Positions 1 through 32,055 of a stretch of DNA of 64,000 nucleotides are shown here, in pieces. Positions within the stretch are counted from its first letter, which is position 1, and each line of letters opens with the position of its first letter. Origin of the DNA: a virus. The translations under genes were made by a program, and so were the position numbers. The DNA lies in the IMG/VR virus record IMGVR_UViG_3300023202_000068, positions 32,001 through 96,000 of that record; one strand, given 5' to 3'. The notes beneath the pieces were generated by a model. That model did no database searches. It was given only the letters and a program-made list of their open reading frames with translations, and was not told the DNA's origin.

Positions 1-2
1 AA

Positions 3-1655
3 GGTGATACAGTACACTTATCTCACGGTATCACAGATAGTAAGCGCGGTGGAGAAAAAGTACATACTGATAAAAAATACGTAGTACATAACGAATCCAA
101 AGGTGGATATAGACAATCACACTGGGTAGTTCCTGAAGGTGAAAAAGATACAAGTAAGGGTAGGTACCACAGAAGTGACAGACTCCACCCTGTAAAGAAA
201 TTTGAAGTACAGCTTAAAAAAGACGTTGGAGCCCTAAAGTTTCCAGGTTTAAAAGACATTACTACAAGACCAGATCAAGAGATTAACTCAATTAGTACTG
301 ATCGGCAAGCAGACATTGCTACTAAGCAAATCGTTGAGAGAGAGAAAAGAGTTAGACCTGAAGCTGCAGAGGCTGTAGAACAAGAAGCCGGAAGAGCTGT
401 TAGAAGCTTAGTTCAGAAAAAACCTAAAAATATATTAGGTAAGCCCAAGAAAGCTAAGGGAACATTTGAAGGTATAGAGGGTGATAGGCAAGCGGCTAAG
501 TCTCAGATTAGAGAGGCCAAGGCAAGACAGGAAGATAAAGATTTTTCAGAGCCAGGGGCTCAAGGCTTCTTAGTAGAGCAGCGAGTGCCAGATCAGAAAG
601 ACTTAGGCTTTGTCCCTGAGAGACACGCAGGCGGTCCAGTACAGCAACACGAAGGTCATCATCACCTGTTTAGCGAAGTATCTAGAAAATACGGTCCAAG
701 TGCTAGGTACAAACTTGTTAATCACTTATTGAAAGAGTTACCTGGTCAAGATATTGAAGACATGAAAGATCATTTAAGGTTTACTTATGGATATGACCAT
801 AAAGATAGTAACTTTAATGAAGAAGTTTTGAACCACGCTAGGGATATACTTGTAAGCCCTAAATCAAGAGAGTCTTACTTAAAGTTTTTAGAAGAAAAAC
901 ATGGTCCTGCAAACACCCATGACAATAGAAGAACAATGGCTAGGGTAAAATCTGGTTGGAGAAAAGTACTTAATAGTAGTAAAAAAGTTACACCTGAAAC
1001 TTTTCAGGCAGAGGTGATTCCTTTTAAGAGTAAGTTAACGGCATCAGAAAAGGCGGTTATTGATATGCACAAAGCTACAAGCTTTAGATCAGCTATAATG
1101 GCTGGACTTGCAACTGGAGCAATGGCGACTAGTAGTAACGTCCAAGCAGGTATGACACAACCAGAGACACCAGTACAAAACACAATCACTCATGACCAGC
1201 AAGTGCCTGAAAATAACAAAAACCACATACTGAATGCAATACAGTTCGTAGAATCATCTGGTGGTAAAAACACCAATCATGAACGACTCCCTCAAGACTC
1301 CATCCATAGAGGAGAAAGGGCTTTTGGAAAGTATGGTTTAACACCCTTATTGATTAGAGAAACTATAGGTCAACACAAAGACTTATCTAGAAAATACAAT
1401 TCATTGCAAAATTTGCAAGGCGATCAGTTTCACGAACAAATGCAGCAACACCCAGAACTAGAAGAAATTATAGCATCACGTCATTACGATAGGCTTTCTA
1501 GAAAGTTTGGTCACGATCATCAAAAAATTGGCTATGCATGGTTGAACGGAATCACTGGTACTATGAAGGCACTAAAGCGTGGCGACGATATATCGGACCA
1601 CTGGCATGTGCAAAAAATTACAAACGCATACAATAAAGCAAAATCTGGTAAGTGA
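3..1655 (+). CDS. 5'-truncated multidomain virion protein: HExxH motif, hydrophobic segment and C-terminal lytic transglycosylase/lysozyme-like domain
   Basis: The frame of ORF 585..1655 is open back to position 3. Motifs: QQHEGHHH; AIQFVESSGG...AFGKYG (catalytic Glu-Ser of SLT-like folds) and AWLNG. Confidence 0.7.
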   Translation, partial: GDTVHLSHGITDSKRGGEKVHTDKKYVVHNESKGGYRQSHWVVPEGEKDTSKGRYHRSDRLHPVKKFEVQLKKDVGALKFPGLKDITTRPDQEINSISTDRQADIATKQIVEREKRVRPEAAEAVEQEAGRAVRSLVQKKPKNILGKPKKAKGTFEGIEGDRQAAKSQIREAKARQEDKDFSEPGAQGFLVEQRVPDQKDLGFVPERHAGGPVQQHEGHHHLFSEVSRKYGPSARYKLVNHLLKELPGQDIEDMKDHLRFTYGYDHKDSNFNEEVLNHARDILVSPKSRESYLKFLEEKHGPANTHDNRRTMARVKSGWRKVLNSSKKVTPETFQAEVIPFKSKLTASEKAVIDMHKATSFRSAIMAGLATGAMATSSNVQAGMTQPETPVQNTITHDQQVPENNKNHILNAIQFVESSGGKNTNHERLPQDSIHRGERAFGKYGLTPLLIRETIGQHKDLSRKYNSLQNLQGDQFHEQMQQHPELEEIIASRHYDRLSRKFGHDHQKIGYAWLNGITGTMKALKRGDDISDHWHVQKITNAYNKAKSGK

Positions 1656-4829: not shown

Positions 4830-4840
4830 CGGAGATTGAA

Positions 4841-6049
4841 ATGCAAGAAATATATGTAGCTATCAACGGTGACGATGTAGGAAATTCAATAGGTTCCGCT
4901 ATTGCTTCTGACGATAGGGAATCACTTGGCTCTACAACCTCCACTTTAAAAGATATACATTCGCAAATTGACCAGTGGGTTGAGCAGTGCGGTGGTGAAG
5001 TTGTAACTTCTTCAGGAGATGAAGGTATCTATAAGGTACCACATGAGTGTGCTGATCACCTAGAGGATATTCGAAGTGAGTATCAAGAGCACACAGGGCA
5101 CACATTGACTATTGGTGTTGGCCAGAGCATGTCTGAAGCTGCCAAAGCTTTGATCTATGGAAAAATGAACAACAAAGACCAGATTGTAGAGTATGCACCT
5201 GAAATGGACGAAGCTATTTCAAGTGAAACTGGTGAAATGGGCACTCAAGGATACGAGCAGCAAAACGAAGGTAAACTTCCTGCAGAAGAAGAAATGTCTT
5301 ATCAAAAGGAAAATGCTGCTCAGCAAGAAGCTAGTATGGCTGAAGAGCCCGATGAAGACATGGTTGAAGAAGACGGTGAAGGCGAAGCTGATAAAGATGC
5401 CGAAGAGATCATTGAAGAAGCCTCTAATGACCCAGAGCATGAAAAAGACATGACTCCTGAAGAAGAGCGCGAGCATGATGCTGCAGAAAATGAGCTTGAT
5501 GAAATGGATGACGATATCGTTGAAGCCGATGAAGAGGCTAATATGGAAGGTATCGACGGCGAAGCTGGTGAAGAAGACATGCAAGTTGATGAAGATGAGA
5601 ATATGGAAGAAGAACCTGAAGCTGACGAAGGTGATCACGAAGATTTATTAGCCGAAATGGTTCATGCTCATATGTCTGGTGAAGAAGATGAAGAAATGCC
5701 AGAAGAAGAGATGATGGAAGAAGAGGTGCCTGAAGAAATGCCAGAAGAAGAGATGATGGAGGAGGACCAATACAGTGACGAAGAAATTGAAAACTTACGT
5801 GCTGATATTGCTCATTCTTTAAACTCCTTTAAGGCAAATAGAGAAATGATCTTGCAAATGCAACAGGCAAGTCCTGAAATGTACGAGAGCTTAATGGTAA
5901 TGCTAAGATCTATGATCGCTATGGGTAGACATATGGGTTTTGACGCTGAACAGGCTGCTGATGAACAAATGTCTGAAGCACAGGCACAAGAAGAAATGCC
6001 TGAAGCTGCTCCAGAAGGTCAACCAATGGCGATGTCTGAAAAAAAGTAG
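4841..6049 (+). CDS. mCpol (minimal CRISPR polymerase/GGDEF-like palm) domain protein with long acidic C-terminal region
   Basis: First ~118 aa: YVAINGDDVG...SSGDEG...TLTIGVG.SMSEA.KAL.YGK..NKD, matching the mCpol pattern as I recall it; followed by ~280 aa rich in E/D/M. Confidence 0.7.
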   Translation: MQEIYVAINGDDVGNSIGSAIASDDRESLGSTTSTLKDIHSQIDQWVEQCGGEVVTSSGDEGIYKVPHECADHLEDIRSEYQEHTGHTLTIGVGQSMSEAAKALIYGKMNNKDQIVEYAPEMDEAISSETGEMGTQGYEQQNEGKLPAEEEMSYQKENAAQQEASMAEEPDEDMVEEDGEGEADKDAEEIIEEASNDPEHEKDMTPEEEREHDAAENELDEMDDDIVEADEEANMEGIDGEAGEEDMQVDEDENMEEEPEADEGDHEDLLAEMVHAHMSGEEDEEMPEEEMMEEEVPEEMPEEEMMEEDQYSDEEIENLRADIAHSLNSFKANREMILQMQQASPEMYESLMVMLRSMIAMGRHMGFDAEQAADEQMSEAQAQEEMPEAAPEGQPMAMSEKK

Positions 6050-6090
6050 CAGGGGTAGGTCGTGGACCTAAAGATCCCATGAGCCTACCC
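6040..6090 (+). promoter_or_regulatory. candidate programmed -1 ribosomal frameshift signal
   Basis: A_AAA_AAG (6040-6046) directly before the TAG stop; 6 nt later a stem GGGTAGG (6053-59)/CCTACCC (6084-90); the -1 frame is open into ORF 6079..6354. Confidence 0.75.
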
Positions 6091-6354
6091 GACAAAGCCG
6101 CCAAAAAAATACCTAAAAAGCAAGCTCCAGTTGGTGCACAACGCGGTAATAAGCTTAAAGTATTAGATGGTGACACAGGTAAAGTTAGGTGGAGAAAAGG
6201 TACTAAGGGTTTCTTGAGAGACTATGACGGTGACCCTGTTAGTACAAATTACACGGCTAGGTATTTAAAACCTAAGCCAAAACACAGCCCACATATGGGG
6301 GGAAAGCGCAGACACGATCCACACATGGGTGACCGAGACGGCGCTTATCAATAA
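6079..6354 (+). CDS. basic polypeptide, probably made as the -1 frameshift extension of the mCpol protein
   Basis: K/R-rich; its own ATG lies inside the hairpin and lacks a good SD. Confidence 0.6.
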   Translation: MSLPDKAAKKIPKKQAPVGAQRGNKLKVLDGDTGKVRWRKGTKGFLRDYDGDPVSTNYTARYLKPKPKHSPHMGGKRRHDPHMGDRDGAYQ

Positions 6355-8173: not shown

Positions 8174-8515
8174 ATGAAAAACGATTCAAAAAACGATAAA
8201 ATTTACAATGACACAGATCTTGTGAAGGCTATCTATAAGACAATTCAGAAAAAAATGAAAAATCGTCACTACAAAGATGATGCCCAGGAAATCATACGTG
8301 ATGTCCTTGACCCTAACTATGTAGCTGAAGTAGACCCAGACGAGGTTCCAGCAGGTAAAACTAATATTACCATGAAGTCTGATAAGGGTGTTGATAAGTT
8401 GAAAAAATTTCAAAAAAGTAAGAAAAGTAAGAAGAAAGGCAGATGTTGGGACGGCTATGAGCCAACACCTGGTAAAAAACCATGTAGTGAAGGTTCATGT
8501 CGTAAAAAGAAGTAA
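8174..8515 (+). CDS. small basic virion protein with C-terminal CWDGY...C motif
   Basis: RCWDGYEPTPGKKPCSEGSC; late motif upstream. Confidence 0.5.
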   Translation: MKNDSKNDKIYNDTDLVKAIYKTIQKKMKNRHYKDDAQEIIRDVLDPNYVAEVDPDEVPAGKTNITMKSDKGVDKLKKFQKSKKSKKKGRCWDGYEPTPGKKPCSEGSCRKKK

Positions 8516-9732: not shown

Positions 9733-11877
9733 ATGGCACAAAGAATTAGTACATCGTTTATCAATACTAACAGGCCAGGTGCTTACTTCGATGTTCAAGT
9801 AAAGTCTACTCCTGTAGGTGTTGCAAGCTCAGGTAATATCATAATTATCGGTGAAGCTGCTGGTGGAGCTGCTGTTGCAGGAATCGATTCAGCAGAAGGT
9901 GATTTGCTAAAAGACAACTTTTTCACACCTGATCAGGTTGATAGAGTTGTTGCAAAATATATTAGTGGTCCAATTGTTGATGCTTTTAGAGCACTTTCAT
10001 CTCCTAGCTCTGATGCAAACATTTCTGGTTCTGCAAATAGAATTTACATTGCTAAAACGAACACTGGAACACGAGCCTCTGCGACTATCGCAAGTGCTTA
10101 CGGAACAATTCGAGATAAGAACTACGGAATTGATGGTAATAAATACTCTTTTAGTATTTCTCAGTCAATTGACGAAGAAGCCCCACAGATTACTGGTTCA
10201 GTAATCGCATCTTTTGGAGCGGCACTTGACGGTGACTTCAGAATGAGAATTGACGGTGGTGCTGAAATTACTGTAACAATTGCATCAAGTCCTGCAGATA
10301 TGACAGATCTTCTAACAGAACTTAACGGTGGTGCTTTGCCAGCCGGAGTGACTGCTACAGAGGGCACTGCTGCTGACAGCTTGACGCTAACATACGACGC
10401 AGATGCTGCGGCTAACAGTAAAGGAAGTGGTAAGTCTATCGAGCTTATTGAGGATTCTATTTTAGCTGCCCTTGGACACTCAGAAGGACTTGTAGTTTCT
10501 TCTGCTGAGCCTGAGGTTCAAGTTGATATCGTAAGACAAGACACTGGAATTAACGAGTCTTTCTTGGCTGAAGCTCAAGTTGCATTGAGAATTGGCTACG
10601 AAGGAACAACTGGAACTATAGATATTACAGACTCTAGCTTGACTACTACTGTAACTGGTGGTTCTGGAACTAACTTGAACATTAACTTGTCAGAGTATCC
10701 TTTGATGTCAGACTTGGCTGAGTTTATCAACTCACAAACTGGTTACACTTGTGTAGCTACCCCTGGGGCATCTCAAACTTCTCCTGTATCTCTTGACGAC
10801 GTTACAGGTGTTGGAATTGCTTCAAGTGATGCTGGAATCCTACCTGGTCGAATTAAAATTTCAACTCTTAGGTTTGAACAAGCAATAGGTCAATCTGCAG
10901 TATTAGATTTTATCTTAACTGCCGATGAAGGTCTACCAGAAGTTGCATCTAGTCAGTTTTTGACTGGTGGACAGCGCGGTGGAACTCTAGCTGCTGATTT
11001 TGTTACAGCTTACACAGACCTAGAGGGTATTGATGTAAACTTTGTAATTCCTTTGATCTCAAGAGATGCTTCTGCAGATATTCTTGACGGTCTAACGGAC
11101 TCTAGCTCTACTTATACAATTGCTGCTGTAAACGCTCTTACAAAAAGCCATGTACTTAAAATGTCTACGGCTAAACTTAAGAAGCACAGAACGGCATTTT
11201 GTAGTTTTGACGGTTCATACTCAGATGCAGTTGCTCAGGCTGGTTCACTAGCTAACCAACGTGTGTCGCTTTGTATGCAAAGAACTAGTCAGGTTAACGC
11301 TGTAGGGGCTGTTGTTAACTTTCAACCTTGGCACACCGCATGTATTGCTGCTGGTATGCAGGCTGCTGGTTTTTACAGATCTATCACAAACAAATTTGCA
11401 AACGTAATTAGCTTTAGCGACCCATCAGGTTTTGACTCTGGTAGCCCTGGAGATATTGAATCTGCTCTTGATGCTGGACTTCTTTTTCTTGAAAAAGCAG
11501 TTGTTGGTAACAAGTGGGTTTCCGATCAAACAACTTATGGAATTGACACAAACTTCGTTTACAACTCAGTTCAAGCTATGTATGCTTCTGATCTAGTTTC
11601 ACTTGATCTTGCAGACAGCTTTCAAACTGCCTTTGTTGGTCAGTCTTTGGCTGATGTAGATGCTTCTACTGCCTTGTCTTTCTTGGCTTCTAAAATGGAT
11701 GCATTTAAAAAACAAAAGCTTATAGCTGCTTCTGACGATGCCCCTCTTGGGTTCAAGAATGCTCGTGTAAGAATCAATGGTCCAATTATGGAAGTTGGTG
11801 TAGAAATTAAGCTTGCTACGGCAATCTTATTCATTCCAATTAACATTGAAATCAGTCAAGTACAAAGCGAAGCTTAG
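9733..11877 (+). CDS. contractile tail sheath protein
   Basis: 714 aa; N-terminal RPGAY and IIIGEAAGG; C-terminal sheath domain ending VEIKLATAILFIPINIEI; followed by the tube gene. Confidence 0.9.
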   Translation: MAQRISTSFINTNRPGAYFDVQVKSTPVGVASSGNIIIIGEAAGGAAVAGIDSAEGDLLKDNFFTPDQVDRVVAKYISGPIVDAFRALSSPSSDANISGSANRIYIAKTNTGTRASATIASAYGTIRDKNYGIDGNKYSFSISQSIDEEAPQITGSVIASFGAALDGDFRMRIDGGAEITVTIASSPADMTDLLTELNGGALPAGVTATEGTAADSLTLTYDADAAANSKGSGKSIELIEDSILAALGHSEGLVVSSAEPEVQVDIVRQDTGINESFLAEAQVALRIGYEGTTGTIDITDSSLTTTVTGGSGTNLNINLSEYPLMSDLAEFINSQTGYTCVATPGASQTSPVSLDDVTGVGIASSDAGILPGRIKISTLRFEQAIGQSAVLDFILTADEGLPEVASSQFLTGGQRGGTLAADFVTAYTDLEGIDVNFVIPLISRDASADILDGLTDSSSTYTIAAVNALTKSHVLKMSTAKLKKHRTAFCSFDGSYSDAVAQAGSLANQRVSLCMQRTSQVNAVGAVVNFQPWHTACIAAGMQAAGFYRSITNKFANVISFSDPSGFDSGSPGDIESALDAGLLFLEKAVVGNKWVSDQTTYGIDTNFVYNSVQAMYASDLVSLDLADSFQTAFVGQSLADVDASTALSFLASKMDAFKKQKLIAASDDAPLGFKNARVRINGPIMEVGVEIKLATAILFIPINIEISQVQSEA

Positions 11878-31407: not shown

Positions 31408-32055
31408 ATGAAAGCATTTCATAACGACACAGAAGTTAAGAAGAAATATTTAAGTAGAGTTGAGCATCACATCAAGGTAGATAACCTCATTAGAGGCAAA
31501 GGTTGGGATGGTTCGAAAGGCTGTGCTGTCGGTTGTACATTAGAAAAGTATGATCATAAAGCTTATGAGACTGAGCTTGGTATACCGGAGTGGCTTGCAA
31601 GAGTTGAGGACGCGCTTTTTGAGGGCATGAACTTAGAGAAATCTAAGACTTTTCCTAAAGAGTTTTTAGAATCTATAAATCCAGGTTCTGACTTAGATAA
31701 AATTAAAGCACCGTTTTTAATTATGGTTCTTAGAAGAAGTTTAGAGCATTTTGATCATGAAAAGTATCCTGATATATACCAAGCGGTCCAATCGGTGATT
31801 GATTTATACGAAATTGGAGAAGCGCCTCCCAATCAATTCCAGGCAGCAGAGGCAGCAGCAGAGGCAGCATGGGCAGCAGAGGCAGCAGAGGCAGCAAGGG
31901 CAGAGTCGGTATGGGCAGCAGGGGCAGCAGCAGAGGCAGCAGCAGGGGCAGCAGCAAGGGCAGCAGCAGAGGCAGCAGCAGGGGCAGCAGCAAGGGCAGC
32001 AGAGTATGATTACTTTGCGGATGAGTTGTTGAAACTTTTGGAGGGTGAGCTATGA
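31408..32055 (+). CDS. phage protein with Ala-rich low-complexity tract
   Basis: GCAVGCTL...LGIPEWLA..EDALFEG; (GCA)n-NRG tract at 31843-32004. Confidence 0.7.
   Translation: MKAFHNDTEVKKKYLSRVEHHIKVDNLIRGKGWDGSKGCAVGCTLEKYDHKAYETELGIPEWLARVEDALFEGMNLEKSKTFPKEFLESINPGSDLDKIKAPFLIMVLRRSLEHFDHEKYPDIYQAVQSVIDLYEIGEAPPNQFQAAEAAAEAAWAAEAAEAARAESVWAAGAAAEAAAGAAARAAAEAAAGAAARAAEYDYFADELLKLLEGEL

Follow-up and report, generated by a model that had tools for sequence, protein, structure and literature searches.

An mCpol-type palm domain in a predicted two-length late protein of uncultured Mx1-like phages

The mCpol gene and its palm domain

The window analysed here is a 64,000-nucleotide stretch (positions 32,001 to 96,000) of IMG/VR virus record IMGVR_UViG_3300023202_000068, which is 96% complete, consists of one 153,539-bp contig and comes from an uncultured relative of Myxococcus phage Mx1. 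On the plus strand of the window, positions 4841-6049 carry an ORF of 402 aa with an ATG start (net charge -107, pI 4.05), and a Shine-Dalgarno-like GGAG, read directly from the sequence at 4831-4834 (plus strand), lies 6-7 nt 5' of ATG 4841. This zero-frame product, the short form, begins with an mCpol palm domain with an Asn-type site (4853-5194, plus strand, aa 5-118), continues as an acidic disordered tether (5240-5773, plus strand, aa 134-311) and closes with a C-terminal helical end (5777-5992, plus strand, aa 313-384).

A preliminary description of the ORF had proposed an mCpol-like nucleotide cyclase domain from four motifs, which we located at aa 5-14 (YVAINGDDVG), 57-62 (SSGDEG), 90-94 (TIGVG) and 107-112 (GKMNNK), and HMM and structure searches bore the proposal out with a full-length PF18182 match and an OptS-like model. 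The mCpol family PF18182 was the sole Pfam family found in the 402-aa protein, matching aa 5-118 with an E-value of 1.8e-15 and 57.7 bits (cut-off 26.4 bits) and covering profile positions 1-114 of 114; GGDEF was not matched by Pfam. The only matches in a PDB sequence search were the Panoptes OptS/mCpol chains 9mnr and 9nwn, with E-values of about 1e-8. The AlphaFold model, built with 23 relatives as input, had a pLDDT of about 96 for aa 1-130, and its best Foldseek match was 9mnr_A (TM 0.89, rmsd 1.5 A, 116 residues, 31% identity), with GGDEF and Cas10 palm domains following after OptS at TM 0.14-0.55. Since Pfam, the PDB search, the model and Foldseek agree, the observation is correct beyond motif likeness: the front of the ORF is a genuine mCpol, a single Cas10-type palm domain, and the conserved columns of the family give the same assignment.

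With Cas10 palm and GGDEF domains the window protein has in common the palm fold and the metal-binding hairpin, where the GGDE of its relatives matches GG[DE]EF, and the AxxALYxxKxxxK of the relatives matches the phosphate-binding end of GGDEF domains. With Panoptes OptS (9mnr, 9pd0, 9nwn; PMC12657218, PMC12657230, PMC13577387) it shares the same palm from end to end, including the hairpin Asp (D57 of OptS, D60 here) and two C-terminal lysines. However, OptS is a cellular protein of about 125 aa, whereas the window protein is viral, measures 402 aa or, in its predicted long form, 504 aa, has Asn in place of Asp6 and Lys in place of Asn34, and has its palm linked to an acidic tether and a helical end, followed by the tail that the predicted frameshift would add.

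The Asn-type site of the window protein comprises N9, D11, S57-S58-G59-D60-E61, K108 and K112. The PDB search alignment is gap-free to residue 70, therefore Asn9 corresponds to KpOptS Asp6 and Asp60 to Asp57, and the earlier remark that Asn replaces the first Asp of the DGDD motif applies to the very position of Asp6. This first metal-binding Asp is absent from the window protein and from 86 of 165 family representatives, which have Asn9; Asp11, the hairpin Asp60, the next Glu61, Lys108 and Lys112 are kept in the window protein. In KpOptS, Asp6 and Asp57 coordinate the divalent metal ion to which the triphosphate is bound, and full activity depends on both of them (PMC12657218); Doherty et al. 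used D57A as a dead control (PMC12657230). Because OptS needs Asp6 (PMC12657218), the change of this first metal ligand to Asn may abolish catalysis. Among the nucleobase contacts, Thr33 and Lys37 of the window protein stand at KpOptS Ser30 and Asn34, where Asp-type relatives have Ser and Asn like OptS; Asn34 of KpOptS is an adenine contact, and position 30 varies among mCpols (PMC12657218).

The long acidic disordered region that had been pointed out behind the palm was recovered at aa 126-311, with 45% Asp+Glu and a net charge of -79, and is modelled as disordered (pLDDT under 50-60 and 45% D+E in the tether as delimited above, with the disorder in the model spanning aa 134-307); its length and sequence vary among relatives, and its acidic character is kept in all of them. 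The helical end is laid out as helix, NP turn and helix, with a pLDDT of 82-90, a core of LxxFKxN...NPxLYxxxxxMLxxMIxM and the invariant columns L327, F330, P345, M354, M358, I359 and M361, and its boundaries follow the model, the conserved columns and an HMM. In the ESM Atlas it gave generic helical matches only, under 0.9, and searches with the helical-end HMM and the basic tail found no second copy in the genome. A complex prediction of aa 305-402 with the major capsid protein scored 0.00, which is not evidence either way.

A predicted frameshift and the basic tail

The zero-frame gene ends in GAA AAA AAG TAG, in which the slippery heptamer A_AAA_AAG (6040-6046, plus strand) is in phase and directly followed by the stop codon TAG at 6047-6049. 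The -1 frame is closed by a TGA directly before the heptamer and is then open for 102 codons, so that the extension covers 6046-6354 (plus strand, 102 codons and stop) and contains the ORF 6079-6354. A hairpin at 6053-6090 (plus strand, -21 kcal/mol, z -3.6) starts 6 nt 3' of the heptamer and encloses ATG 6079, for which no Shine-Dalgarno match was found. The long form would have 504 aa. Its tail is basic (pI 10.3, net charge +14), with 51% mean column identity among relatives and the conserved core SLPDK...PxGA..GK.KV.DG.TGK..WR.G..G; its model was poor, with a mean pLDDT of 60 and one beta-hairpin only.

AAAAAAG occurs 49 times in the window against 34 expected, a number reached by no shuffle, and because the heptamer alone is this common, the case for a frameshift rests on conservation and not on the motif. 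In 8/8 Asn-type loci (the window and seven others) an in-phase heptamer precedes the stop by 0-1 codon, and in the Asn-type loci examined the -1 frame opens 0-6 codons before the heptamer. Hairpins of differing sequence were found at the same place in 6/7 of the other Asn-type loci, with z from -2.0 to -6.7. RNAalifold on a MAFFT alignment did not recover the hairpin, since the alignment places the 3' arms one column apart, and single folds were used instead; Rfam had no family at the frameshift site. In L007, L010 and L014 the tail is without any possible start codon, and in L016, P0031, L029, L046 and Mx1 it is fused in frame.

Asp-type loci have C_CCA_AAA, C_CCA_AAG or A_AAA_AAG as their sites. 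Three of them (L021, L024 and L050) need the +1/-2 frame for the tail, and may arrive at the same product by another kind of recoding. In these three loci the tail comes after a conserved CC_CCA_CAG...stop, and CAGGAGG is found 12-13 nt upstream. In the window, the long form could alternatively arise by transcriptional slippage at the A7 run, a mechanism that the CCA-type sites of the Asp-type loci do not fit. Comparison of the loci shows that the predicted -1 frameshift, together with the hairpin, would give a minority of the chains a conserved basic tail of 102 residues.

Two known systems resemble this arrangement. The dnaX frameshift uses the same A_AAA_AAG heptamer and a downstream hairpin as well, and the tail chaperones G/GT are likewise two products of a phage structural operon with a common N-terminus and a conserved extension domain. 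Unlike the genes of G/GT, the mCpol gene lies upstream of the sheath gene and not between tube and tape measure, and its common part is an enzyme-type domain with a tether, unrelated to G.

The protein family, its two branches and their gene order

Word-indexed searching yielded 37 relatives, 396-704 aa long and each with an N-terminal PF18182, and an exhaustive HMMER search with aa 1-125 returned at least 755 clusters at E<=1e-3, 494 of them at <=1e-10, clusters being defined at 50% identity. Almost all of the best 150 of the 755 clusters measure 350-960 aa. Nearly all family members also match the helical-end HMM at 1e-11 to 1e-31 with an acidic stretch between, and because these parts co-occur in nearly all members, palm, acidic tether and helical end constitute one family. 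No close stand-alone form was found. When 185,579 prokaryote genomes were scanned by pattern, there were no Asn-branch relatives, and the Asp branch appeared on four short MAG contigs only.

Of 165 representatives, 86 have Asn at position 9 and 78 have Asp there. Other columns are near-invariant: D11 (165/165), D60 (164/168), E61 (157/168), K108 (in 165) and K112 (in 154). The Asp branch has DGD, GGDE and Asn37, as canonical cyclases do, and the Asn branch, to which the window protein belongs, Lys37 included, has NGD, SGDE and Lys37; the partner columns of the branches are thus S58 versus G58 and K37 versus N37, the latter equivalent to OptS N34. Across the 86 Asn-type clusters D11, G59-D60-E61, K108 and K112 are essentially invariant, and Asn9 never drifts. 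A tree of 164 domains, for which the trait columns were masked, accounts for the N/D label with 2 changes, compared with 54 for shuffled labels. As far as the sequences can tell, the site of the Asn branch has been remodelled in a stable and co-ordinated manner and has not decayed, since the tree splits with 2 changes and each branch has its own partner substitutions. Real decay of the nucleotide site is what the residues of the Mx1 orthologue WNM70340.1 (27% identity) indicate, with Ser, Ala, Gln and Gly at positions 9, 60, 108 and 112; this orthologue still has the same place, the tether, the helical end and the basic tail.

The plus-strand order at the locus is a 1667-aa multi-module (polyvalent) protein, p174, p298, p158, p296 and mCpol, then a 91-aa basic ORF, p253, p337, three small genes, sheath and tube. 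The gene upstream of the mCpol gene ends 11 nt before it, with no promoter or terminator matches between the two, and the tail sheath gene (9733-11877, phrog_279) has the mCpol gene 3.7 kb upstream. The protein p298 is phrog_1004, a virion structural protein, and p337 is PF23932-like. PHROGs gave no match for the mCpol protein, the 91-aa ORF, p296 or p158, PDB sequence searches of p337, p253 and p298 gave no match, and among cultured phages tblastn of p337 and p298 recovered Mx1 only, which is also the only close cultured relative by capsid protein (53% identity). Capsid, portal, large terminase and GroEL genes are on the minus strand at 10-20 kb of the genome. The placement among head and neck genes in the preliminary description therefore held for the neighbourhood and failed for the capsid, as the capsid, portal and terminase genes are 16-27 kb away on the other strand.

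Several further observations were made in this region. The gene for the 1667-aa protein covers window positions 1-1655 and starts 3348 bases before the window (L003:10652-15652); its product contains 7 linker motifs of the K-S-E type and has a C-terminal part resembling a lytic transglycosylase. A 133-aa NUDIX hydrolase gene (L003:6973-7371, plus strand) directly follows that of an 885-aa protease-like protein, and at the corresponding place Mx1 has a NUDIX-annotated giant protein. The GroEL-type chaperonin gene (L002:15148-16950, minus strand; phrog_5725, E 2.5e-88) lies between the terminase and capsid genes. A scaffold-capsid block in positions 1-21554 of the genome is inverted relative to the Asp-type contigs L021 and L024, where the block is on the same strand as the mCpol block and a few kb upstream of it. 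The C-terminal 22 residues of p113 (8174-8515) form a Cys-rich basic microdomain, GRCWDGYEPTPGKKPCSEGSC, which recurs with 67-68% identity in two mCpol-family proteins from other phages, P0109 (aa 85-106) and P0059 (aa 625-645), and may be a shared docking tag.

We also considered the mCpol protein as the scaffold and rejected it. A separate 252-aa acidic helical scaffold-like protein (L003:2374-3129, minus strand) adjoins the capsid gene (L003:965-2350, minus strand), and the mCpol gene is 16 kb from the capsid gene. Counts of the motif [hydrophobic]-x-K-[SN]-[ED] were 9 for the scaffold-like protein, against an expectation of 0.4, 7 for the polyvalent protein, 2-3 for each of p296, p305 and p174, and 0 for the mCpol protein of the window. 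The scaffold is probably this 252-aa protein, from which the consensus of the prohead-protease site would follow. Among family members, 50/149 have the K-S-E-type motif, usually after the helical end, and in P0135 a module of the polyvalent protein (56% identity) is joined to mCpol via an MHKSE linker.

The genomes that carry the family are those of Mx1-like myoviruses of about 150-180 kb, and the gene order was shared by 12 Asn-type IMG/VR loci, by the Asp-type loci examined (10 of 53 fetched, with contigs up to 177 kb) and by Mx1. Comparison across these loci shows the predicted mCpol carrier to be a core, position-fixed late gene, not a sporadic counter-defence gene, and to be placed always between head-cargo-type genes and neck/tail genes. 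Since this place is kept over deep divergence, even without an active site, a role independent of catalysis is suggested.

The preliminary description had also stated that no cognate effector gene is adjacent, and indeed the neighbours are of virion type; the whole 153.5-kb genome gave no match to the Cap15-type receptor domain PF18153 or to SAVED PF18145, and no second mCpol. With neither a Cap15-type or SAVED effector domain nor a second mCpol, the locus is not a Panoptes system, and it differs from a Panoptes operon in having neither S-2TMbeta nor SAVED effector (as searched with PF18153 and PF18145).

Possible roles of the protein

The best explanation of the data as a whole, which we hold tentatively at a little short of an even chance, is that the protein is a particle-associated carrier of two lengths that combines a non-catalytic role in assembly or delivery with a palm domain that holds a nucleotide. 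The protein consists of the palm domain, a polyacidic disordered tether of about 180 residues and the small conserved helical end. It would be associated with the particle and have an essential role in assembly or delivery with no need for catalysis; the parts responsible would be the helical end and the basic tail, in a ratio set by the frameshift. The palm domains may pair as in OptS, and NTP-Mg would be held through D11, D60, E61, K108 and K112. Asp-type relatives most likely make a cyclic di- or oligonucleotide, by analogy with OptS, and the Asn-type domain most likely still binds a nucleotide, with its chemistry or base preference changed or weakened, so that for the Asn branch binding with altered or weak chemistry appears more likely than full activity. 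The non-catalytic binder, which the preliminary description had named as an alternative for this domain, gains some weight because Asn9 is fixed throughout the branch together with Gly58 to Ser and with Lys for the adenine-contact Asn. A nucleotide site under selection in most lineages is the best-supported picture that the columns suggest. Against the carrier speaks that the window protein has none of the K-S-E-type motifs seen in its neighbours. So does its net charge of -107, which fits poorly beside packed DNA and rather resembles that of a scaffold departing from the head; the charge would suit a head-leaving as well as a head-staying protein.

The late operon provides a setting for such a protein. 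T7 gp16 transglycosylase and T4 Alt are virion proteins with an essential structural role and a dispensable enzyme domain, and to our knowledge no palm-type nucleotide cyclase is known in polyvalent or dual-role virion proteins; the polyvalent proteins of phages are reportedly treated by Iyer et al. in 2017. The mCpol protein resembles these proteins in having a polyvalent protein as late-operon neighbour, in the P0135 fusion, and in the fact that Mx1 has lost the site and kept the protein.

Ratio-setting frameshifts are typical of assembly proteins, e.g. lambda G/GT. The same features could belong to a pseudo-enzyme, whose palm would be the dimer or tetramer module of a scaffold-like assembly protein that binds and makes no nucleotide, helps to build the head or neck and then leaves; we regard this as somewhat unlikely. 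The frameshift would then set a ratio as expected for such a protein, and Asn9 for a metal-binding Asp, Lys37 for the adenine contact, the fully degenerate yet retained Mx1 orthologue, the fixed place of a core gene in the structural module and a net charge of -107 resembling that of the neighbouring scaffold all agree with it, as does the fact that OptS itself forms dimers and tetramers (PMC12657218). However, the site columns of the Asn-type proteins are invariant, which is the pattern of a working ligand site and unlike the free decay in Mx1.

The counter-defence role put forward in the preliminary description, in which a packaged and injected decoy maker or binder would act on Panoptes, CBASS or type III signalling, is in our judgement unlikely. 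Counter-defence genes are not usually core genes that hold one place across deep divergence, Mx1 retains the gene without an active site, and the window protein is without the protease-type motifs of the neighbouring cargo; these points stand against the homology to the Panoptes guard nucleotide synthase, the late-operon place beside a polyvalent cargo protein with the P0135 fusion to such a module, and a genome without an effector of its own (PF18153 and PF18145 searched). We would likewise call improbable the related reading of the Asn branch as signal-holding, by which a palm delivered with the virion would bind NTPs or cyclic oligonucleotides tightly and without turnover, as a sponge or dominant-negative subunit directed at CBASS, type III CRISPR or Panoptes-type signalling at DNA entry, and the Asp branch would make the decoy.

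A cytoplasmic late enzyme outside the particle, whose nucleotide would steer host physiology or lysis timing and whose carrier parts would only localise it to assembly sites, seems decidedly improbable: mCpol enzymes are constitutively active (PMC12657230), and late-operon expression is implied by the 11-nt gap free of promoter or terminator matches, but the conserved two-length design and the dead Mx1 copy would be left unexplained. We give hardly any credence to the polyacidic tether as an active DNA mimic that soaks up host DNA-binding proteins while the palm multimerises, for although it has 45% Asp+Glu over 186 residues with a net charge of -79 and stays acidic in all relatives despite its unconserved sequence, it varies freely in length and sequence, and conservation is seen in the palm domain, the helical end and the basic tail.

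Studies of mCpol have been confined to its part as signal synthase in the Panoptes guard of bacteria; here it is a fixed gene in the particle gene block of a large uncultured phage group. The papers on mCpol that were consulted, the three Panoptes papers among them, deal with cellular systems only, and the defining paper (Burroughs et al. 2015) may mention viral copies. mCpol has been described as relatively rare (PMC12657218), and the hundreds of phage clusters at 50% identity far exceed the 163 mCpol proteins aligned in one Panoptes paper. The conserved predicted frameshift would be a new case of recoding outside the tail-chaperone genes. As Mx1 is cultured, virion proteomics and genetics are feasible, and the natural Asp/Asn split offers a ready-made experiment on the first metal ligand. 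If the Asp-type copies are active, these phages would make immune-type nucleotides themselves.
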